A stretch of DNA of 64,000 nt from Gemmatimonadales bacterium (GCA_041390205.1 JAWKQJ010000008.1:5842-69841), one strand, 5' to 3'. Positions 20,778-42,051 are shown, counted from the first letter of the stretch. Notes: generated by a model from the letters alone, not told the origin. Made by a program: numbers and translations.

Positions 20778-23618
<2,841 letters not shown>

Positions 23619-23675
23619 AAGAGGCGGAAGCTTGCCGGGTCCACCCCGTGATGCAAGGGTCCGGCGTCACGACTC

Positions 23676-24506: not shown

Positions 24507-26062
24507 GGGTTGGGGCCTTCAATCGGCGGACCGCCGGGAGGCTGGTCCTGCTCGGTTGGGCGGTGACGCTCGCGTGGCTGGCCCGTCGCGAGCTGGGCAA
24601 GACCGAGGCGCAGACCATCCGGGAGGCGACCATCCGGCTGAGCCCGGATGCTCATTTCTACGCCGTGCTGGCCAAGGGGCACCAGGTCGGCTACGCGAGC
24701 GTGACCGTGGACACCGTGCCCGGCGGCTTCAGCGTGGCCGAAGTGATGGCGCTCGACGTGGCCGACCAGGATTCGATCCGGCGGGTCACCCGGCGGACGG
24801 AGCTCTTCCTGAGTCGCTCGCTTCGGCTTCGGGGCTTCACCCGGACGCTGACCGGCGGCGGGCTCTACGAAGAGCTGTCCGGCCGCTTCGACGGCGACAG
24901 CGTGCTCCATTTCCTCCAGCGGGACGCGCGCGACGGTGAGCCGACCGAGTGGTCGGTCCGGCCCGAAGGCGACGTGGTGCTCCCCCAGGTGCTGCCCTAC
25001 CGACTCGCGTTCAGCAAACGGCTCGAGATCGGACGCTCGGTCGAAGCCAACGTGCTCGATCTGAACACCGGCCTGATCGCGCCGATCGAGTTCCGCGCCA
25101 CGGCCGAGAGCACCTTCGTGGTGGCCGACAGCGCGGTGGAGCAGCGGCTCACCGGCAAGTGGATGCCGGTGACCTACGACACGGTAAAGGCCTGGCGGAT
25201 CGAGCACGACGCGGCGGGCACGCCGATGGTGAGTTGGGTCGACTCGCACGGCGGCCTGGTGCGCTCCGAGGCCGCGCTCGGCGTGCGGATCGAGCGCTCG
25301 GCTTTCGAGCTGGTGAGCTTCAACTACCGGGTGGCGACGGTCGCGCGGGGCACGGCGCACCATCGAGGCGTGCCGGGAATGCAGACCCTCGCGGCGAGCG
25401 GCATCGTTCCCCCGGCCGACACCGGCAGCCTGTCGTGGGCGGTCTCCAGCGCCCCGATCGAGCGCTTCCTGATGCCCAGAGTGGCCTGGCTCGACGGCGG
25501 CCGGCAGCGCGGTCGCGACGGCGAGCTGGAGGTCGGGTCGCACCGGCCCGGCGGCGCCGATCAGAAGAGCGACTATCTCGGCCCGCCACCGGAGGCCGCG
25601 CCGGCGGTGCTCGCGCTCGCCCGACAGATCGTCGGCAAGGCGACGGCGGAGCCAGCGCGGATCCGGGCGCTCGCGCGCTGGGTCGCGTCGTCGATCGCGC
25701 TGGACACCGCGGTGGCGGCGGCCAGCGACGTCGAGCGGACGCTCGAGACCCGGTCGGGCAGCCCCGAGGGGCACGCCCGGCTCTTCGTGGAGCTGGCGCG
25801 CGCGCTCGATCTGAGCGCGCGTCCCGTCGGCGGCGTGGCGGTGCTGCCGAGCGGCGTGTACGGACACGCCTGGGCCGAAGTGTGGCTGGACGGCGGCTGG
25901 CAGGCCGTCGATCCGAGCTACGGGCAGGTGCCGGCGTCGAGCCGGCTGATTCGAGTCACCGTTGGCGGCACCGGCCGGGCGATCGACCTGGTGCCTCTGA
26001 TCGGCTCGGCGACGTTCGCGTCCGTCGATCCCCCACTCCCCACCGTCGGCGCGCGGCAATGA
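24503..26062 (+). CDS. Transglutaminase-like domain membrane-anchored protein
   Basis: GTG start in a GTGA overlap with the TPR stop. N-terminal TM helix LVLLGWAVTLAWLA. The C-terminal core GSPEGHARLFVELARALDLSARPVGG..YGHAWAEVWLDGGWQAVDPS fits a transglutaminase core, except that the position normally holding the catalytic Cys reads G-S-P-E-G. Confidence 0.65.
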   Translation: MRVGAFNRRTAGRLVLLGWAVTLAWLARRELGKTEAQTIREATIRLSPDAHFYAVLAKGHQVGYASVTVDTVPGGFSVAEVMALDVADQDSIRRVTRRTELFLSRSLRLRGFTRTLTGGGLYEELSGRFDGDSVLHFLQRDARDGEPTEWSVRPEGDVVLPQVLPYRLAFSKRLEIGRSVEANVLDLNTGLIAPIEFRATAESTFVVADSAVEQRLTGKWMPVTYDTVKAWRIEHDAAGTPMVSWVDSHGGLVRSEAALGVRIERSAFELVSFNYRVATVARGTAHHRGVPGMQTLAASGIVPPADTGSLSWAVSSAPIERFLMPRVAWLDGGRQRGRDGELEVGSHRPGGADQKSDYLGPPPEAAPAVLALARQIVGKATAEPARIRALARWVASSIALDTAVAAASDVERTLETRSGSPEGHARLFVELARALDLSARPVGGVAVLPSGVYGHAWAEVWLDGGWQAVDPSYGQVPASSRLIRVTVGGTGRAIDLVPLIGSATFASVDPPLPTVGARQ

Positions 26063-26817
26063 TCCAGCTCAACGAGCTCACCAAACGGTACGGCAAGTTC
26101 ACCGCGGTGAACGGCATCTCCCTGGAGATCCCGACCGGCACGCTCTACGGCCTGCTCGGCCCGAACGGCGCGGGCAAGACCACGACCATGCGGATGATCG
26201 CCGGGATCCTCCGGCCGACCTCCGGGACGGTGACCGTGGCCGGGTACGACGTGGTCCGGCAACCGATGGAGGCGAAGCAGCGTCTCGGCTTCATCCCGGA
26301 CCGGCCCTTCGTCTACGACAAGCTGACCGGCGCGGAGTTCCTGCGCTTCGTGGCCGGCCTCTACGGCCAATCCGGCGCGGACGTGGAGCGGCGGATCGAC
26401 GAGCTGCTCGACCTCTTCGAGCTGGTCCCGTGGAAGAACGAGCTGACCGAGGCGTACTCGCACGGGATGCGGCAGAAGCTGATCATCTCGAGCGCGCTGG
26501 TGCACCGGCCCGAGGTGATCGTGGTGGACGAGCCGATGGTGGGGCTCGACCCGAAGAGCGCGCGGCTCCTCAAGGACATCTTCCGTCACTTCGTCGAGCG
26601 GGGCGGCACGGTGCTGATGAGCACCCACACCCTGGAGATCGCCGAGGTGATGTGCGACCGGATCGGGATCGTGTTCGGCGGGCAGGTGGTCGCGGCGGGC
26701 ACGATGGCGGAGATCCGGGCCCAGACCGAGTCGGGGGCGGCCACCCTCGAAGAGGTCTTCCTCAAGCTGACCGGCGGTCTCAACGCGCGTGAGCTCAGTG
26801 ACATCCTCGGCCGTTGA
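26059..26817 (+). CDS. ABC transporter ATP-binding protein
   Basis: Walker A GPNGAGKTT, signature YSHGMRQKL, Walker B VIVVDEP. ATGA overlap with the upstream stop. Confidence 0.9.
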   Translation: MIQLNELTKRYGKFTAVNGISLEIPTGTLYGLLGPNGAGKTTTMRMIAGILRPTSGTVTVAGYDVVRQPMEAKQRLGFIPDRPFVYDKLTGAEFLRFVAGLYGQSGADVERRIDELLDLFELVPWKNELTEAYSHGMRQKLIISSALVHRPEVIVVDEPMVGLDPKSARLLKDIFRHFVERGGTVLMSTHTLEIAEVMCDRIGIVFGGQVVAAGTMAEIRAQTESGAATLEEVFLKLTGGLNARELSDILGR

Positions 26818-28519
26818 GAGCTCGCCCCCCAGGGGCGCGGGCATCACCCGGATCCTCTTCCCGAAGTGGCGGAGCGTGCTCGCGCGCCTCGCCAAGGAGC
26901 GCTCGGGCGCGGGCACCCGAATCCTGCTCCTGGTCCTGATCGGCGGCGGCTTCTGGGCCGGGGCCTTCGGGGCGTTCTACCGGGTCCTCAAGTACCTCGG
27001 CACGACCCCCGAGATCGGGGCGCTCCTCGCCGGCAAGATCCTGAGCATGATCCTGCTCGCGTTCGGATCGATTCTGCTGCTCTCCAACCTGGTCACGGCG
27101 CTCTCGGTCTTCTTCCTCGCGAAAGACCTCGACATGCTGGTGTCCGCCCCGGTCGACTGGGGGCGGCTCTACGTCGCCAAGCTGGGCGAGACCCTGATCC
27201 ACTCGTCCTGGATGGTGGCGCTGATGCTGGTGCCCATCCTGACGGCGTACGGGGTGGTCTACGACGGGGGCCCGCTCGTCCCGGTCGCGGCGATCGGCGC
27301 GCTGCTGCCCTTCTTCGTCCTGCCGACGGTGGTGGGCTCCGCGATCACCCTGATCCTGGTGAACGTCTTCCCGGCCCGGCGCACCCGAGACCTGCTCAGC
27401 CTGATCGCGATCGGCGCCGTGGGCGGGGTGGTGATCTTCCTGCGGGTGCTCCGGCCGGAGCAGCTCTCCCGCCCCGAAGGCTTCCGCAACCTGGTGGACT
27501 TCGTGGCCGAGCTGCAGGCGCCGTCGCATCCGCTGATGCCGAGCGACTGGGCCGCCGACGCGGTGATGAACTGGCTCCAGCACGTGGGCGACCCCCTGCC
27601 CCTCCTGCTGCTCTGGTCGACCGCGGCCGCCTTCGTGGTGCTGGGGGCCGCGCTCCACAGCCGGCTCTATCCCAGCGGCTACTCGAAGGCGCAGGAGGGC
27701 GCCGACAAGTACGTGGCGGGCACCCGGTGGCAGGCGACCTTGAGCCGGGCGCTGGCCTTCCTGCCGGTGACCCGGCGGGAGTTCATCCTGAAGGACCTGC
27801 GGGTCTTCTTTCGCGACACGACCCAGTGGAGCCAGCTGATCCTGCTGGCGGTGCTGCTGATCGTCTACGTCTTCAACATCCGGGCGCTGCCGCTCTACAC
27901 CGGCGAGCGGGTGCCGTACATGCTGGTGACCCTGGTGGTCTTCCTGAACCAGGGGCTGGGCGGCTTCGTGCTCGCGGCGATCGCGGCGCGGTTCATCTTC
28001 CCGTCGGTATCGCTCGAGGGCCGGCAGCTCTGGCTGCTCAAGTCGAGCCCGCTCGACCTGCGCTCGATGCTGTGGAGCAAGTACTGGGTCGGGACGGCGC
28101 CGCTGTTGGTCGTGGCGCTCGGGATCACGCTGGTGACCAACAGCATCCTCCGGGCGTCGCCGTTCATGATGTTCCTGAGCCTGGTGACGATCGCCTGCTT
28201 CACCCTCGCGGCGGGATCGCTCGCGCTGAGCCTGGGCGTGCTCTATCCGCAGTTCGACACCGAGAACGCGGCCCAGATCCCGACCAGCTTCGGCGGGATG
28301 GTGTTCATGATGGCGTCGATCGCGCTGCTGGCCGCGATCATCGCGATCGAGGCACGCCCGGTGTCGGCGCACCTCGCGGCCTACCAGATGGGCGAGGAGG
28401 CGCCGGGATTCACCCGGGAGCTCTGGCTCGCGGTAGGCGGCGTGTTCCTGGTTTCCGCGGCGGTGACGCTGATCCCGCTCAGCCGGAGCCGCAAGCGACT
28501 CGAGGCGCTCGACCTCTGA
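26789..28519 (+). CDS. Polytopic membrane protein, putative ABC exporter permease
   Basis: 576 aa with about 12 hydrophobic segments. GTG start overlaps the ATPase gene by 29 nt. The family is not recognised precisely. Confidence 0.6.
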   Translation: MSSVTSSAVESSPPRGAGITRILFPKWRSVLARLAKERSGAGTRILLLVLIGGGFWAGAFGAFYRVLKYLGTTPEIGALLAGKILSMILLAFGSILLLSNLVTALSVFFLAKDLDMLVSAPVDWGRLYVAKLGETLIHSSWMVALMLVPILTAYGVVYDGGPLVPVAAIGALLPFFVLPTVVGSAITLILVNVFPARRTRDLLSLIAIGAVGGVVIFLRVLRPEQLSRPEGFRNLVDFVAELQAPSHPLMPSDWAADAVMNWLQHVGDPLPLLLLWSTAAAFVVLGAALHSRLYPSGYSKAQEGADKYVAGTRWQATLSRALAFLPVTRREFILKDLRVFFRDTTQWSQLILLAVLLIVYVFNIRALPLYTGERVPYMLVTLVVFLNQGLGGFVLAAIAARFIFPSVSLEGRQLWLLKSSPLDLRSMLWSKYWVGTAPLLVVALGITLVTNSILRASPFMMFLSLVTIACFTLAAGSLALSLGVLYPQFDTENAAQIPTSFGGMVFMMASIALLAAIIAIEARPVSAHLAAYQMGEEAPGFTRELWLAVGGVFLVSAAVTLIPLSRSRKRLEALDL

Positions 28520-29931: not shown

Positions 29932-31161
29932 ATGCCGCGCCGCTCTCTGCTCTTCGCCGCCGGACTCGCGCTCGCCCTCGGCGGGTGCTCCGCGGACGAT
30001 CATCCCCTCACCGCCCCCGCGGAGGAAGGACGCACCCCTCCGCCGGAGCAACCGGCGGCCGCCGTCAGCCAGGCGCGCAACGAGCGGTTGGCGGAGTGGC
30101 TCGCGCTGGCCTTGCGCGACCCCGCCTTCCGCCGCACGCTCAAGCTCTCGCTCGACCGGTCGCCGTATCGCGAGCACAAGCTCCACCTGCAAGGCCTGCT
30201 CGCGGCCGACGAAGGCGCCGAGCGCGCTCGGATGGCCGCGCTGGCGGGCGCCGACGAGTCGATCCTCACCCGCGACCTCGCCGAGGCCTCGGCTCTGGAG
30301 CTCTACTTCCCGGTGCCCGCGCATCGCGAGCGGTGGTCGGGAGACGAGCAGCTGCTGGTCGCGACCGCCCTTCGCGACGGCGACGCACCGGTGGCCTTCG
30401 ATCTGCGCGGTGGCCGCCACCTGCTCAACCCCGAGGGGCCGCCGGCCACCCCGGTGCTGATGGTCGAGCCGGCCGAGCTCGACTTCGCGAGCCCGGCGAG
30501 TCGGATCATCTGCCTCGACGAGTGCGACACCAATCCCGGCGGCGGGTCGAGCACCGGGGGCAGCGGACCCTCCGGCCTCTATATGACCCGCACCGCGTTC
30601 ACCGGCACCTTCGAGAGCTGGTTCAAGGGCAGCCCCGAGTTCGAGGTCCACATGCTGGGCCAGGAGGGCACCAGCCAGCGGATGATCTCCTATCAGTGCG
30701 CGGGCGAGCATGCCGGCGGCGCGTACGCCTTCGACCAGAACTCGACCACCTGGATCGGCAACGTGCTGCTGTTCAGCGACGCGCAGCTCGCCGCCTACAA
30801 GCAGCAGCATCCCAACGTGAACCTCCGGATCATGGTGCTCGAGGACGACGACGGGGCGTGTCAGATCCGCACGGACTCGACCCGGGTGACCAACCTCTTC
30901 AAGGCGGTCGACGCCGCCTACAGCTCCTACACGGCCGGCACCGACACCCAGCTCACCTCGCTGCAGCGCGCCTGGAAGCGCGCCTCGGGACTGATCAAGG
31001 TGATCTCGGCCGCGACGAGCTGGATCCTCACGCCCGACGATCCGGTCGGCAACGCGGTCGAGGACCCGACGGCGGCGGGTGGCTTCTTCGTCGGCGGCAA
31101 CTGGATCGTGCGAGGGGAAAACAACGTCGCGAACGGCGCGCTCAGACTCGAGATGCGCTGA
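29932..31161 (+). CDS. Hypothetical lipoprotein
   Basis: 409 aa with the lipobox LALGGC and non-repetitive composition. No family recognised. Confidence 0.6.
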   Translation: MPRRSLLFAAGLALALGGCSADDHPLTAPAEEGRTPPPEQPAAAVSQARNERLAEWLALALRDPAFRRTLKLSLDRSPYREHKLHLQGLLAADEGAERARMAALAGADESILTRDLAEASALELYFPVPAHRERWSGDEQLLVATALRDGDAPVAFDLRGGRHLLNPEGPPATPVLMVEPAELDFASPASRIICLDECDTNPGGGSSTGGSGPSGLYMTRTAFTGTFESWFKGSPEFEVHMLGQEGTSQRMISYQCAGEHAGGAYAFDQNSTTWIGNVLLFSDAQLAAYKQQHPNVNLRIMVLEDDDGACQIRTDSTRVTNLFKAVDAAYSSYTAGTDTQLTSLQRAWKRASGLIKVISAATSWILTPDDPVGNAVEDPTAAGGFFVGGNWIVRGENNVANGALRLEMR

Positions 31162-32348
31162 CGGGCGCCCAGGTCGGATCCGCGGCCCGGCGCCGCGGCG
31201 CGAGGTCGGCCGCCCGAGCCCCACTCGGGCGGCCGATCGTCGTCGGTGGACGCGAGGGGTCGACAGGACGGGATCGGCGGCACCTGTGCTGGTCGTTCCG
31301 GTCCCGCCACCGGCCAGCCGGATGGCGGCTCGCTATGACGAGCTTTCGTGCTCCCCTGTGCCGGCGGTCCTTCCGGCCGTGCGGCTCTCCATCGGGGGCG
31401 CCGGGCGCGCCGCGGCCACCCCGCGCGAGGAGCCACCAGGCAGCCGGCAGCGCAGAGCATCACGACGATGGTGCGAACGTCGGTGCCGGCCCAGGGATTG
31501 ACCGTCGCGCCCAACGCCTTGCTCCAGAGATTGGAGCCGCCGTGAATCAGCACACCGGGAAGGGCGCTCCCGCCGGTCGCCAGGAAGCCCCAGGTCGACA
31601 GCAGGGAGAGCGCGATGCAGAGAGCCAGGAACCAGAGCTGCCCGATGACGAACCCGGCGCTCAGCCCGCCGGCGAGCAGCGTGGGCAGGTCACGCGGCAG
31701 ATGCCAGGCCCACCAACCGAGCCCGAGCGTGAGGCTCGCCCCGACCGGCGAGCTCAGGATCTCGAGCAACCGCGGGAGGGCGAATCCCCGCCAGCCAAGC
31801 TCCTCGAGCGTGCCGCCCTCGTCGATCAGATGACCGAGCGCGAGCGCCACCGCGATCCCGAGCGGTGCGCCCCCGAGCGCCTCGCGGCTGCCAGCGACCG
31901 CCGCGTCCGCGCCGACCCGGGCGCCCCACCAGAGATACCAAGCGATCACGGCCGCCGAGCCGCCGAGGATGATCAGATACGGCCGTCCCACACCGCCCCG
32001 AGGTTGCGCCGGCCCGGTCGGCGCGAGGCGCCGAAGCAGCAAGCGCACCCCGGCGAAGCCGCCGCGCCCGCCGCTGACCGCGATCGCGGCGAGCGACGGC
32101 GCCGCCGCGAAGACCAGGATCAGCCAGGCGGCCGGCTCTTCGAGCGCATAGCGCCCGATGCTGACCAGGTTGAGAGGGGCGGACTCATGAGCCAGAAAAG
32201 CGATCAGCCCGCCCTGCACGTCGGGCAGCCCGAGCCCGAGCGCGGCCGCCATGATGGCGGCCGGGATGGCGAGCGCGACGAGATAAAAAGCGAAAAGCTC
32301 GCGAGCCGGCTTGCGGCTCACGCCCGGGCTGGCGCCCGGGCCCCGCAC
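30927..32348 (-). CDS. CPBP family intramembrane glutamic endopeptidase (3-prime end doubtful)
   Basis: EELGWRGFALPRL (the EExxxR motif) and LIHGGSN. Only the first roughly 300 aa look real. The last roughly 170 aa are Arg/Pro-rich, read through the 31206-31236 hairpin and overlap the convergent lipoprotein gene by 235 nt. An alternative frame stops at 31333. Confidence 0.6.
   Translation of the reverse strand: MRGPGASPGVSRKPARELFAFYLVALAIPAAIMAAALGLGLPDVQGGLIAFLAHESAPLNLVSIGRYALEEPAAWLILVFAAAPSLAAIAVSGGRGGFAGVRLLLRRLAPTGPAQPRGGVGRPYLIILGGSAAVIAWYLWWGARVGADAAVAGSREALGGAPLGIAVALALGHLIDEGGTLEELGWRGFALPRLLEILSSPVGASLTLGLGWWAWHLPRDLPTLLAGGLSAGFVIGQLWFLALCIALSLLSTWGFLATGGSALPGVLIHGGSNLWSKALGATVNPWAGTDVRTIVVMLCAAGCLVAPRAGWPRRARRPRWRAARPEGPPAQGSTKARHSEPPSGWPVAGPERPAQVPPIPSCRPLASTDDDRPPEWGSGGRPRAAAPGRGSDLGARQRISSLSAPFATLFSPRTIQLPPTKKPPAAVGSSTALPTGSSGVRIQLVAAEITLISPEARFQARCSEVSWVSVPAV
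31206..31236. terminator. Strong perfect hairpin (13-bp stem, 5-nt loop)
   Basis: TCGGCCGCCCGAG-CCCCA-CTCGGGCGGCCGA, 45 nt after the lipoprotein stop. Confidence 0.5.
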
Positions 32349-32839
32349 TCGGGGCAGAAGTTGCCCGTCGTCGGCAAAGCGGTGCCACAGTCACCACAAT
32401 AGCTCGCACCCGCGACCCGACGCCCGCAATCCGAGCAGAACACCGCGTCCGCCTCGGGTCGGGGCCCGCACTGCGAGCACACCACTCCCTCGGTCCCGCC
32501 GGCGATGGCGGCGGTCCGGGCGGCGACGAGTCGCTCGGCTTCGTCCAGGGTGGGGTCCTCACCCGCCTCGCGGAGGGCCTCGACCGCCTCGTCGACGAAG
32601 CGCTGCCGCATCAGGGCGTAGTCTTCGTCGGAGACCTTTCCCGTGGCGCGATCGAACTCGAGCTCCTTGATCGCGAGCAGGGCCTGTCCACGGCGGGTCT
32701 CCTCGACCGGGACGATGTCGTCGGCGCCAGCCGGCGCGGGCGCCGCCGTCCGCTCCCCCGGCGCACGGACCAGCGGTCCCACCACCATCCAGAGCACGAG
32801 GGCGCCGAGCAGGGCGGCGGCCAGCAGCTCGAGCGTCAC
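32318..32839 (-). CDS. Membrane-anchored double zinc-ribbon protein, ccm-associated (possible CcmI-like)
   Basis: 173 aa. N-terminal TM helix, then LLAIKELEFDRATGKVSDEDYALMRQRF, resembling CcmI N-terminal regions. The C-terminus has CSQCG..CSDCG..CGDCG..CPECG. 4-nt overlap with ccmH. Confidence 0.5.
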   Translation of the reverse strand: MTLELLAAALLGALVLWMVVGPLVRAPGERTAAPAPAGADDIVPVEETRRGQALLAIKELEFDRATGKVSDEDYALMRQRFVDEAVEALREAGEDPTLDEAERLVAARTAAIAGGTEGVVCSQCGPRPEADAVFCSDCGRRVAGASYCGDCGTALPTTGNFCPECGARAPARA

Positions 32840-33423
32840 GACTCGAGCTCGCGCAGGGCGCGCTCGACCTGGGCCATCTCCTGGTCGGTCACGCGGGCCG
32901 CGTCGGAGCGCTCGACCGGGCCGGCGGCGGGCGCCGGTGCCGGCTCGGGGCGGTCGCGGCGCAGCAGAACCCAGGCGAGGATCGACCCCGCGACCAGGAC
33001 CAGCGAGCCGGGCAACAGGTAGCCCACGGCGCCGAAGCCCTTCGCCTTCGGCGCCATCAGGATGCTCTCTCCGTACTTGGCGACGAAGGCTTCGATCGCC
33101 TGATCGGGGGTGTTGCCGGCCTCGAGAAGCTGCACCAGCTCCCGATGGAGCTCGGGCGAGTAGGTGCAGGTGAAGTCGGTGGTGCGGCAGGTGAAGACGT
33201 CGAGCCCGCAGCCGCAGGTGCAGCGGAGCTTGTACTCGATCGCACGGACGGTCTCGTCGTTGTCCATGGCCCGGACTTCGGGCCGGGCTCCACCCGCCCA
33301 GCTCGGCGCCATCAACGGATCGGCCGGCCCCCGGGCCGAGTCCTGCTGGACCCGGAGTCCCGGCAGCAGCAGCCCCGCGGCGCCGAGTCGGCCCGCACCC
33401 CGCAAGAAATCGCGACGCTTCAA
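32836..33423 (-). CDS. ccmH: Cytochrome c-type biogenesis protein CcmH/NrfF family (CxCGC variant)
   Basis: 195 aa with KLRCTCGCGLDVFTC..C, FVAKYGESILMAPKAKGFG and a C-terminal TM helix. The N-terminus RRDFLRGAG looks like a twin-arginine signal. Confidence 0.7.
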   Translation of the reverse strand: MKRRDFLRGAGRLGAAGLLLPGLRVQQDSARGPADPLMAPSWAGGARPEVRAMDNDETVRAIEYKLRCTCGCGLDVFTCRTTDFTCTYSPELHRELVQLLEAGNTPDQAIEAFVAKYGESILMAPKAKGFGAVGYLLPGSLVLVAGSILAWVLLRRDRPEPAPAPAAGPVERSDAARVTDQEMAQVERALRELES

Positions 33424-33481: not shown

Positions 33482-35515
<2,034 letters not shown>

Positions 35516-35568: not shown

Positions 35569-35997
35569 TCAGGTCGACTTCTTGTGCAGATCCTCCAGCT
35601 CGGCCTCGTACCGCGAGCCGCACTTCGCCAACACCTCGGTCGCGTGGAAGACCCCGTCGCGACCCAGCTTGCCGGACATGATCACTTCGATGTCGTTGGC
35701 GTCGGTGAAGGTGTCGGGCACGATCCCGGTGTACTCGACCGGAAAGCTCGCGGTGCTGTCGCTCACCCGGAAGGCGATCCGCTGGCTGCTCGGGTCGCGC
35801 TGGATGGTGCCGGGCACCACCTTGGCGCCGACCTTGAGGCCCACGTCGTGGAACGAGGGATCCTGGCTGGTCCTCGCGACCAGCTCGCTCGGGCTCAGGA
35901 AGTAGACACCGGTCTGCTTCACGCCTTGGTACATCAGTCCGACGATGGCGAGGACGATGACGGTGGAGCCGAGCGCGAATTTACTGGAAGCCTTCAT
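35569..35997 (-). CDS. ccmE: Cytochrome c maturation heme chaperone CcmE, Cys-variant (CxxxY)
   Basis: 142 aa: N-terminal TM anchor, OB-fold body, and C-terminal VLAKCGSRYEA where canonical CcmE has VLAKHDENY. Confidence 0.85.
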   Translation of the reverse strand: MKASSKFALGSTVIVLAIVGLMYQGVKQTGVYFLSPSELVARTSQDPSFHDVGLKVGAKVVPGTIQRDPSSQRIAFRVSDSTASFPVEYTGIVPDTFTDANDIEVIMSGKLGRDGVFHATEVLAKCGSRYEAELEDLHKKST

Positions 35998-36041: not shown

Positions 36042-37521
36042 TCAGTGACCGCGAGCCCAGTGGAGGGTGGCGCCGACGGCCCGCCGCCACCCCGCCAGCC
36101 ACCCATCCCGCGTGGGCCCCGGCACTTGCGGATCGAATGAGGAGAACCGGCGGCCGGCCACGAATTGGTCCAGCGATTTCCATACCCCCACGGCGAGCCC
36201 CGCCAGGGCCGCGGCGCCAAGCGCAGTTGTCTCGAAACAATCCGGTCGCTCGACCGGCACGCCGAGGAGGTCGGCCTGGAATTGCATCAGCCAGTCGTTG
36301 GCCGTGGCGCCGCCGTCGACCCGGAGCCGGCTGAGCTCGAGCCCCCCGCCCCTCAACATCCCGTCGATCAGGTCGTGGCTCGAGAAAGCCATCGACTCCA
36401 GCGCCGCGCGGGCGAGGTGGGCCCGGGTGGTGCCCCGGGTCAGACCGACGATCGTGCCGCGGGCGTTAGGCTCCCAGTGCGGCGACCCCAGCCCCACGAA
36501 CGCGGGCACGAAGTAGACCCCGCCGGTATCCGCCACCGAGCGCGCCAGGGCCTCCGACTCCTGCGCCCGTTCCAGCAGCCCGAGCCCGTCGCGCAGCCAT
36601 TGGATCACCGCGCCGGCGATGAAGACGCTGCCCTCGAACGCGTAGCCCAGCCCGCCGGTCGGGTCGCAAGCCGCGGTCGCCAGCAGGCCGGGACCCGGCG
36701 TCGGCGGCTCCGCCCCCGTATAGAGGAGGAGAAAGGCTCCGGTGCCGTAGGTGTTCTTGGCCAGTCCGGGCGTGGCGCACCCCTGCCCGAAGAGCGCCGC
36801 CTGCTGGTCGCCGGCCACACCGGCGATCGGGATCGACGCGCCAAACCAGGACGGGTCGGTCTCCGCCATGACGCCGCTCGAGGGCGCCACGGTGGCGAGC
36901 AGCTCCGCCGGAACCCCGAACAGCTCGAGCAGCTCGGGATCCCAATCGCGACGCCGGAGCGAGTACAGCAGCGTCCGGCTGGCGTTGGTCGGATCGGTCC
37001 TGAGCGGCGCGCCCCGCCCGAGCCGGGCGATCAGCCAGGTGTCGACCGTGCCCGCGGCGAGCTCGCCCCGCTCGGCCCGGGCGCGGATCCCCGGATCGCG
37101 GAGCATCCACTCCAGCTTGGTGGCGGAGAAATAGGGGTCGAGGACCAGGCCGGTCCGCTCCCGGACCATCGCCTCGACCCCGTCCCGCTTGAGCTCGGCG
37201 CAGCGGGCGCTGGTTCTCCGATCCTGCCAGACGATCGCCGGGCCGACCGGCGCCAGGGAGGCCCGCTCCCAGATCATCACCGTCTCGCGCTGGTTGGTGA
37301 TCCCGATCGCGGCGGGCCGCTCGCCGCACTGGGCCAGGGCGTCCCGGGCCGCGGTGACGGTCGACTCGAGCAGGTCCCGCGGGTCGTGCTCCACCCAGCC
37401 GGGCTCGGGAAAGTGCTGAGGGAACTCGCGCTGCCCCGAGGCGAGGACGGTCCCGTCCTGCGTGGATCACCAGGGCCCGGGAGCTGGTGGTGCCCTGGTC
37501 GAGGGCCAGTATCGAAGGCAT
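36042..37521 (-). pseudogene. glpK: Glycerol kinase, one frameshift near 37458-37462
   Basis: MPSILALDQGTTSSRALVIHA is in one frame. DGTVLASGQREFPQHFPEPGWVEHDPRDLL.. and the following 450 aa (NTYGTGAF, VDGGATAND) are in another. The frames meet at GCA-G-GAC. Confidence 0.9.

Positions 37522-39493: not shown

Positions 39494-42049
<2,556 letters not shown>

Positions 42050-42051
<2 letters not shown>

Follow-up and report, generated by a model that had tools for sequence, protein, structure and literature searches.

Two forms of System I provide the background against which this locus has to be read: the canonical pathway, in which the heme chaperone CcmE binds heme through the His of an HxxxY motif, and System I*, in which CcmE is of a Cys type (CxxxY) and which is known from archaea and Desulfovibrio (Allen 2006 and Goddard 2010, as cited in PMC3601427 and PMC9084895). 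According to PMC3601427, System I* lacks CcmH; its published definitions also include the absence of CcmG from the Desulfovibrio operon and of CcmD and CcmI from the archaeal systems. The Cys-type CcmE of D. desulfuricans was reported to bind heme covalently, and C120 is required in the CcmE of M. acetivorans (PMC3601427; PMC9084895, eLife 2022). How heme is released from a Cys-linked CcmE is an acknowledged puzzle, a thioether being normally very stable (PMC3601427). Here, we describe a Cys-type ccmE at 35569-35997 (minus strand) of a 64,000-nucleotide stretch from a Gemmatimonadales bacterium (GCA_041390205.1 JAWKQJ010000008.1:5842-69841), the whole of which is called the window below and has a G+C content of 71%. 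The names under which its close homologs are recorded likewise point to the Gemmatimonadales. An earlier note on this DNA had stated that a CxxxY variant goes with a missing CcmH, and the articles just cited document that association.

In the literature searched, CcmH relatives are mentioned only in passing as exceptions to this absence, with Archaeoglobales as a related case. In the CcmH-like proteins of Geoglobus and Ferroglobus, LX[S,N]C[E,D,H]C takes the place of LRCXXC, and their genes flank a duplicate ccmF (PMC4600277, Stand Genomic Sci 2015), and CcmH homologs were noted in Ferroglobus and in ANME-2d (PMC9012536). In the related Nrf system, NrfFG has been described as a thiol oxidoreductase, NrfF being a paralog of the CcmH N-terminus (PMC12285233).

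It is likely that the ORF (open reading frame) at 35569-35997 is a functional Cys-type CcmE that heads a conserved four-gene module, and that this module represents a third, internally consistent form of System I, not a mix of the canonical pathway and System I*. On the minus strand the order is ccmE, ccmF, a CcmH-family gene with a cluster of five Cys, and a gene for a zinc-ribbon protein of 173 amino acids (aa). Judged by its distribution among genomes, the module appears to be a new System I variant that is coherent and widespread. The literature searched had nothing on Gemmatimonadota or Acidobacteriota systems, on the five-Cys signature, or on the Tat (twin-arginine translocation) signal and the partner protein described below. 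The features are as follows:

35569..35997, minus strand: ccmE, Cys-type (CxxxY) heme chaperone, 142 aa (Pfam CcmE, PDB matches, AlphaFold2 (AF2) model)
35602..35634, minus strand: heme-binding motif VLAKCGSRYEA (translation)
33482..35515, minus strand: ccmF, heme lyase subunit, 677 aa, with the WWD motif WGGYWAWDPVENAS (Pfam)
32836..33423, minus strand: five-Cys CcmH-family gene, 195 aa (Pfam CcmH, AF2/Foldseek)
33406..33420, minus strand: twin-arginine (Tat-type) signal motif KRRDF, residues 2-6, with R3 and R4 invariant
33166..33222, minus strand: cysteine cluster CTCGCGLDVFTCRTTDFTC (C68, C70, C72, C79, C86) in place of LRCXXC (translation)
32318..32839, minus strand: fourth gene, 173 aa, with an N-terminal membrane helix, the motif LAIKELEFDRATGKVSDEDYALMRQRF and a C-terminal double zinc ribbon (Pfam DZR, 33.7 bits)
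32290..32302, minus strand: terminator-like hairpin with a T-run, about 16 bases past the stop of the fourth gene (consensus scan)

The cysteine of CcmE and its conservation

The ORF at 35569-35997 is a genuine CcmE of the Cys type. Its match to Pfam CcmE (PF03100) reached 93.1 bits against a cut-off of 24.6 and covered profile positions 2-98 of 99, and a sequence search of the PDB returned solved CcmE structures at E=5e-15. The protein has an N-terminal membrane helix, an OB-fold (oligonucleotide/oligosaccharide-binding) domain and a flexible C-terminal tail. In the AF2 model, with a pLDDT (predicted local distance difference test) of 78, these appear as a helix at residues 3-29, strands at 54-125 forming an OB-type barrel, and a tail of low confidence. 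Best among the Foldseek matches of this model were the CcmE structures 8ce8_E, 1lm0, 1j6q and 1sr3, with target-normalised template modelling (TM) scores of at most 0.74. All eight NCBIfam equivalog models for CcmE stayed under their cut-offs (best NF009731, 76.8 bits vs 152), and in sequence E. coli CcmE, at 59 bits, is closer to the protein than the D. vulgaris CcmE 2kct, at 18.7 bits, is.

The earlier note had read VLAKCGSRYEA in the C-terminal segment and had taken its Cys for a replacement of the heme-binding His. Translation of 35602-35634 on the minus strand gives this very segment, and the alignment with CcmE orthologs, which the note had suggested as a check of the motif position, bears the replacement out. 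In phmmer alignments with 8ce8_E and 1sr3_A, 'vlakcgsrye' lies over 'vlakhdenyt', with Cys126 in the column of the heme-binding His130 of E. coli CcmE; Tyr130, four residues further on, is retained in the conserved Tyr column. A MAFFT alignment with E. coli CcmE again put Cys126 in the His130 column. The canonical His of the HxxxY motif is absent from the window CcmE, which has Cys at that site. The codons are TGC at 35620-35622 for Cys126 and TAC at 35608-35610 for Tyr130, and in the model Cys126 comes directly after the last beta strand, where the low-confidence tail begins.

Conservation of the residue is complete among close relatives. CGS[RK]Y was found in 120/120 best CcmE homologs, C126, G127, S128 and Y130 are invariant in an alignment of 44 CcmE sequences, and Cys is present in 69/69 related Gemmatimonadales genome loci with a readable CcmE motif. 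Scanned in full with HMMER, 1.84 billion cluster representatives yielded the 150 nearest clusters at 50% identity; when these were aligned with the query and E. coli CcmE, the motif column showed Cys in 120 rows and His in four, one of which was E. coli, and the signature common to the nearest clusters was C[PGA]S[KR]Y. Since the nearest clusters worldwide are overwhelmingly of the Cys type, the window CcmE seems to belong to a large Cys-type group, and an independent change from His to Cys within the Gemmatimonadales lineage was rejected for the same reason. Taken alone, the Cys-type CcmE is of an already known kind and ordinary for its lineage.

That the true residue is His, hidden by a sequencing or assembly error or by the decay of a pseudogene, is barely conceivable. 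Apparent indel errors do occur elsewhere in the window, gyrB being spread over three frames and the N-terminus of glpK lying in another frame, but these disruptions leave the ccmE ORF untouched; it is intact, with a G+C fraction at third codon positions (GC3) of 0.91. Two base changes would be needed to get from TGC to CAC or CAT, and the Cys is invariant in all 120 homologs and 69 independent genomes, on which ground an error as the source of Cys126 was rejected. The His-type motif that, according to the earlier note, might surface once a sequence error was corrected is not borne out by this conservation.

The disrupted genes were recorded separately. gyrB (39749-42051, plus strand) is read in three frames, with the N-terminus up to '...TVVDNGR', a second-frame piece and the rest from about 40561; its breaks are probably assembly indels, and this essential gene is not likely to be a true pseudogene. 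In glpK (36042-37521, minus strand), the N-terminus (MPSILALDQGTTSS...) is out of frame with a body of 450 aa that Pfam matches from profile position 42 onwards, and uvrA-like pieces (an ABC_tran fragment and UvrA_inter) occupy separate ORFs at 20781-23666 (minus strand). The glpK and uvrA-like splits are further signs of frameshifts in the window.

The five-cysteine CcmH-family protein and its pairing with CcmE

The third gene of the module encodes a protein with a twin-arginine signal, a periplasmic CcmH-fold domain, a C-terminal membrane helix (residues 132-156 in the AF2 model) and a short cytoplasmic tail. It matches Pfam CcmH at 56.5 bits (cut-off 25), and its model (pLDDT 81.6) is predicted to have the CcmH fold, the best Foldseek matches being E. 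coli CcmH 2kw0 and P. aeruginosa CcmH 2hl7 (probability 0.99, target-normalised TM 0.61). Sequence searches of the PDB and NCBIfam gave no match, its placement coming from Pfam and the fold search only.

In this protein the LRCXXC of canonical CcmH is replaced by LRCTCGCGLDVFTCRTTDFTC, with the local sequence LRCTCGC. In an alignment with canonical CcmH from His-type control loci, only C68 matches a canonical Cys; Gly71, flanked by C70 and C72, stands where canonical CcmH has its second Cys, and a five-residue insertion brings in C79 and C86. Invariant in 69 CcmH-like sequences are C68, C70, C72, C79 and C86 along with R80, T81, T82, D83, F84, S89, P90 and H93. CxCxCx6Cx6C was present in 54/54 Gemmatimonadales copies, and LRCXXC was found in none of these, in none of 120 close homologs, and in none of the 19 metagenomic copies and 120 profile matches introduced below, all of them being five-Cys proteins. 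Because LRCXXC is missing in every copy examined, the window protein does not appear to be a canonical thiol-oxidoreductase.

The export signal differs within the family. Among Gemmatimonadales, 109/120 homologs and 47/51 loci carry a motif of the type RRx[FLIVW][LIVMFA], which is present in 4/120 five-Cys CcmH proteins from outside this group, the others having ordinary Sec-type signals. An extra conserved segment before the domain (GAADPL..P...G..R..V...DND) was also seen in the Gemmatimonadales branch (L001-L071).

The twin-arginine signal hints at a cofactor, and the five Cys could bind a metal or an iron-sulfur centre in a folded, Tat-exported protein that takes no part in thiol-disulfide exchange, for example as an electron donor for the reduction of heme or CcmE. 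We consider this rather doubtful. The signal is conserved in Gemmatimonadales, the five closely spaced Cys are invariant together with His93, and the cluster region is modelled at high confidence, all of which would suit such a site; but cytoplasmic cofactor insertion would not be general to a family that relies on Sec-type signals in other phyla, and the Cys past the third are variably spaced (x6-7, then x1-6), a trait not usual in fixed cluster sites. Because only four of the 120 proteins outside Gemmatimonadales have the signal, a cofactor acquired by way of Tat export cannot be the family rule, and Tat-exported cofactor binding as a general property of five-Cys CcmH was rejected.

Whichever gene the search starts from, five-Cys CcmH appears to be tied to Cys-type CcmE, and this in several phyla. 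A CcmE-first scan of metagenomes with a 24-sequence KCPSKYE subset gave 80 loci, a sample biased towards CPSKY-type CcmE; 26 of them were informative, having ccmF and at least 700 bp beyond it, or a detected CcmH-like gene. A CcmH-like gene stood directly after ccmF in 19 of the 26, with five Cys in 19/19 and LRCXXC in none (example clusters are LMCYCGCSDLTVRVCTCGT, LLCDCGCHPQSIRDCACGR, LMCQCGCGMTLAACFESMEC and LMCTCGCPHLIGQCGDEC), and seven were without a CcmH-like gene, the classical System I* pattern. In two metagenomic loci, L139 (4210-6357) and L147 (10177-12936), the five-Cys CcmH-like region lies within the stop-to-stop ORF of CcmF (716 and 920 aa), and these ORFs may be CcmF-CcmH fusion proteins.

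The search in the opposite direction used a profile of 14 diverse five-Cys proteins with five invariant Cys. It retrieved 120 proteins, all of the five-Cys form, with Polarisedimenticolia, Acidobacteria, Acidiferrales and Chloroflexota among the source names. Eight of the proteins were traced to contigs, seven of them with DNA sequence; the six with an adjacent readable CcmE (L157, L159, L160, L161, L162 and L165) all have the Cys type, with KCASKYE, KCPSKYE or QCPSRYE, and one looked-up locus holds ccmF, the CcmH-like gene and the fourth gene with no ccmE adjoining. In five of the six, L161 being the exception, ccmA, ccmB and ccmC lie downstream in the same operon, and in L159 a CcmG-like thioredoxin and a DsbD_TM protein are encoded as well. 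The same arrangement is seen in L072, an Acidobacteriota genome locus that also has a Cys-type CcmE. His-type controls form a small sample: L073 and L075 have ccmG and a CcmH with LRCPKC or LRCVMC, and L164 has ccmG directly after ccmF.

Other genes accompany some of these operons. A secreted protein of 350-490 aa is encoded between the small partner gene, the counterpart of the fourth gene, and ccmA in L157 (8975-10324), L165 (8817-10130), L072 (13330-14793), L163 (8872-10107) and L159 (9023-10114), with a weak or faint Pfam CarboxypepD_reg match in two of them, L157 and L165. Except in L159, which is not of the Acidobacteriota type, it ends in the motif of the small partner protein, 'LFRLELRxQAGTISEEDYARER', and it may be a further part of the system with a docking motif in common. 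A ferrochelatase gene follows the ccm operon in the Acidobacteriota loci L157 (12668-16433) and L165 (12600-16501), and past it, L157 has genes for a Rieske protein and cytochrome b, and L165 has genes of heme A synthesis (COX15-CtaA, UbiA); genes for heme synthesis, maturation and client complexes are clustered there.

The earlier note had placed the variant CcmE in a ccmE-ccmF-ccmH-like cluster and had called the whole a hybrid or intermediate System I. The cluster is there, with CcmF and a Pfam CcmH-family gene on the same strand, and a variant CcmE does coexist with a CcmH-family gene against the no-CcmH rule of System I*; the hybrid label is only partly right, the CcmH-like protein lacking LRCXXC and the five-Cys pairing recurring across phyla. 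A system in transition from System I to System I*, with a Cys-type CcmE beside a CcmH thiol-oxidoreductase that is otherwise ordinary, seems unlikely to us. In its favour, a gene of the Pfam CcmH family with the CcmH fold follows ccmF, and the first Cys of the LRC motif is kept. The canonical second Cys, however, falls on Gly71 and no examined copy has LRCXXC, solved CcmH structures and NCBIfam give no sequence match, and the five-Cys proteins make up a separate, large subfamily that goes with Cys-type CcmE across several phyla. Because this pairing holds in both directions and the His-type controls carry ccmG and a CcmH with LRCPKC or LRCVMC, a separate, co-adapted configuration is preferred over a mixture of System I and System I*.

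The module, its surroundings and its proposed role

CcmF is the sole WWD protein of the window. It matches Pfam CcmF_C (183.8 bits) and Cytochrom_C_asm (137.1 bits), and aligns with Thermus thermophilus CcmF (6zmq) at 342 bits, with His in the aligned HPP, LHS, SVHSFA and IHVA segments; having both domains, the WWD motif and the conserved His, it appears intact. The start of the fourth gene overlaps the stop of the ccmH-like gene by 4 bases. The N-terminal part of its product, made up of the helix and LAIKELEFDRATGKVSDEDYALMRQRF, is homologous to small proteins encoded directly after five-Cys CcmH in other phyla, and the homolog in L159 has a double zinc ribbon too. A hidden Markov model (HMM) of this N-terminal module matched 51 Gemmatimonadales loci, 15/19 metagenomic five-Cys loci and 1/7 CcmH-less loci; by their coordinates, the contigs of the four five-Cys loci without a match end at or just past the CcmH-like gene. 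The fourth protein is tentatively regarded as similar to the CcmI N-terminus. Against the CcmI model TIGR03142, the L162 homolog reached E=4.4e-5 and 23.8 bits, under the cut-off of 29.3, and the window protein E=1.1 and 9.5 bits; hhalign with the Marinobacter CcmI N-terminus gave E=2.7e-4 and a probability of 41% over a 28-residue motif. No Pfam match to a TPR (tetratricopeptide repeat) domain was found in the fourth protein, whose C-terminal part is the double zinc ribbon.

The CcmH-like and zinc-ribbon genes were both present in 51/51 informative Gemmatimonadales loci, that is, those in which ccmF is complete and followed by 900 bp or more of sequence. The cluster is flanked by glpK upstream and a CAAX protease gene downstream, and in many Gemmatimonadales loci the module adjoins glpK in a housekeeping region. 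The hairpin at 32290-32302 is possibly the end of the operon; the consensus scan gave 3 sites against 2.0 expected in shuffles, which is weak evidence. Just beyond the CAAX protease gene, a 409-aa protein (29932-31161, plus strand) has a lipoprotein-like signal (LALALGGCSADD) and no Pfam match. An ABC (ATP-binding cassette) ATPase (24940-26814) and a PF16949 'putative ABC exporter' permease, together at 24940-28519 on the plus strand, are syntenic in many related loci. This ATPase provides the sole CcmA-like matches of the window, and the pair was rejected as CcmAB, being without a CcmB or CcmC match.

Paralogous CcmE, CcmF and CcmH could also form an Nrf-like accessory lyase module for one unusual cytochrome, while the general work would fall to a System II or a canonical His-type System I encoded elsewhere. 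CcmF does score on NrfE/CcmF subfamily models of NCBIfam, below their cut-offs, ccmABC are unlinked, and non-canonical CcmH-like genes flank the duplicate ccmF of Geoglobus and Ferroglobus (PMC4600277). We nevertheless judge such an accessory role improbable: the module includes a ccmE, unlike Nrf modules, it shares one operon with ccmA, ccmB and ccmC in other phyla, and in many Gemmatimonadales loci it is conserved beside glpK. Since no CxxCH cytochrome gene was found among credible window ORFs, no client cytochrome is linked to it, and neither nrfA nor another cytochrome gene lies nearby.

Several points weigh against a functional four-gene System I variant. No ccmA, ccmB, ccmC, ccmD, ccmG or ccdA was found in the window, and none of ccmA, ccmB, ccmC, ccmG and ccdA lies within 10 kb of ccmE in 71 related Gemmatimonadales loci, so that the heme-loading half of the pathway has to be assumed for this genome. 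The 64 kb covered here may be complemented by a second, His-type ccmE elsewhere in the genome. Linkage is not absolute either, five related genomes holding ccmE with neither ccmF nor ccmH adjoining, and the CcmI-like assignment of the fourth gene draws on sub-threshold matches. Non-covalent heme binding through the Cys has been reported for D. vulgaris CcmE (PMC3884852), and the chemistry at Cys126 may be covalent or non-covalent. Finally, the whole case rests on comparative genomics, with few His-type controls.

The five genomes are Gemmatimonadota loci (L003, L008, L009, L015 and L028) in which an intact ccmE lies by glpK and no ccmF, CcmH-like or zinc-ribbon gene was found within about 10 kb downstream; their synthetase genes have been either moved or lost. 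A CAAX protease match comes almost directly after ccmE in L008, L009 and L015, the last two of which have a readable Cys motif.

If the module acts as proposed, the membrane-anchored CcmE would be loaded with heme on the outer face by CcmABC(D) encoded elsewhere. By analogy with the Cys-type CcmE of Desulfovibrio and Methanosarcina, it may hold the heme via Cys126, by a thioether to a vinyl group or by axial ligation, together with Tyr130. Heme would then pass to a synthetase complex of CcmF, five-Cys CcmH and the CcmI-like protein and be attached at CXXCH sites. The five-Cys cluster would replace the canonical CxxC in thiol chemistry and may suit a thiol-linked CcmE-heme intermediate; alternatively, it may form a metal site.

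A bolder proposal, which we put forward tentatively, is that CcmE(Cys) and five-Cys CcmH have co-evolved as a pair and together define a third System I with a mechanism of its own in Gemmatimonadota, Acidobacteriota lineages and probably Chloroflexota, with cluster chemistry beyond that of canonical CcmH and with Tat export in Gemmatimonadales. The cluster might resolve or protect the thiol-linked CcmE-heme intermediate, or carry a metal centre. Were this true, the release of heme from a stable thioether, the open problem of System I*, would have a dedicated catalyst, and the five-Cys protein is a testable candidate for the missing chemistry. These proteins, which databases name simply CcmH, are flagged here as distinct from that annotation.

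Comparison with known systems

Compared with canonical System I of E. coli and Rhodobacter, CcmABCDEFGH(I), the locus shares the CcmE, CcmF and CcmH families and folds, the order ccmE, ccmF, ccmH, and a membrane-anchored partner past CcmH that resembles the CcmI N-terminal module. It differs in having Cys for His130, CxCxCx6Cx6C for LRCXXC and a Tat-type signal on the CcmH-like protein, and in having no ccmG between ccmF and ccmH, in contrast to L073, L075 and L164. Canonical CcmI has a second membrane helix and a periplasmic TPR region that binds apocytochrome, whereas the fourth protein has a double zinc ribbon that is presumably cytoplasmic.

The accessory Nrf module, NrfEFG, is the lyase for the CXXCK heme of NrfA and likewise consists of a paralogous CcmF-like/CcmH-like pair with a CcmI-like partner away from ccmABC; unlike the window module, Nrf modules are without CcmE, and no nrfA lies near the module described here. 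Geoglobus, Ferroglobus and ANME-2d are similar in that a CcmH homolog stands alongside an archaeal Cys-type CcmE; in Geoglobus and Ferroglobus it has a Cys-rich motif without LRCXXC. By the published motif, Geoglobus and Ferroglobus have Ser or Asn where the bacterial five-Cys family has its first Cys, and the archaeal genes are pairs flanking a duplicate ccmF, not a unit of ccmE, ccmF, ccmH and a fourth gene.

System I* is similar in its CcmE, the window protein standing among Cys-type sequences in the nearest-cluster search, and in the presence of CcmF; a small CcmI-N-like membrane protein is found also in the CcmH-less locus of Fuchsiella (L074). Of the genes whose absence defines System I*, ccmG, ccmD and ccmI were not found in the 64-kb window. 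Unlike System I*, the Gemmatimonadales have ccmABC unlinked, and a CcmH-family gene, recognised by Pfam and by fold, follows ccmF here and in all 51 informative related loci. The studied Cys-type systems, those of Desulfovibrio and Methanosarcina, are without any CcmH; our survey suggests that many environmental bacteria with a Cys-type CcmE do hold a CcmH relative, its active-site motif rebuilt into a five-Cys cluster, and that a small, weakly CcmI-like partner always accompanies it. The simple rule that a CxxxY CcmE means no CcmH is corrected accordingly.

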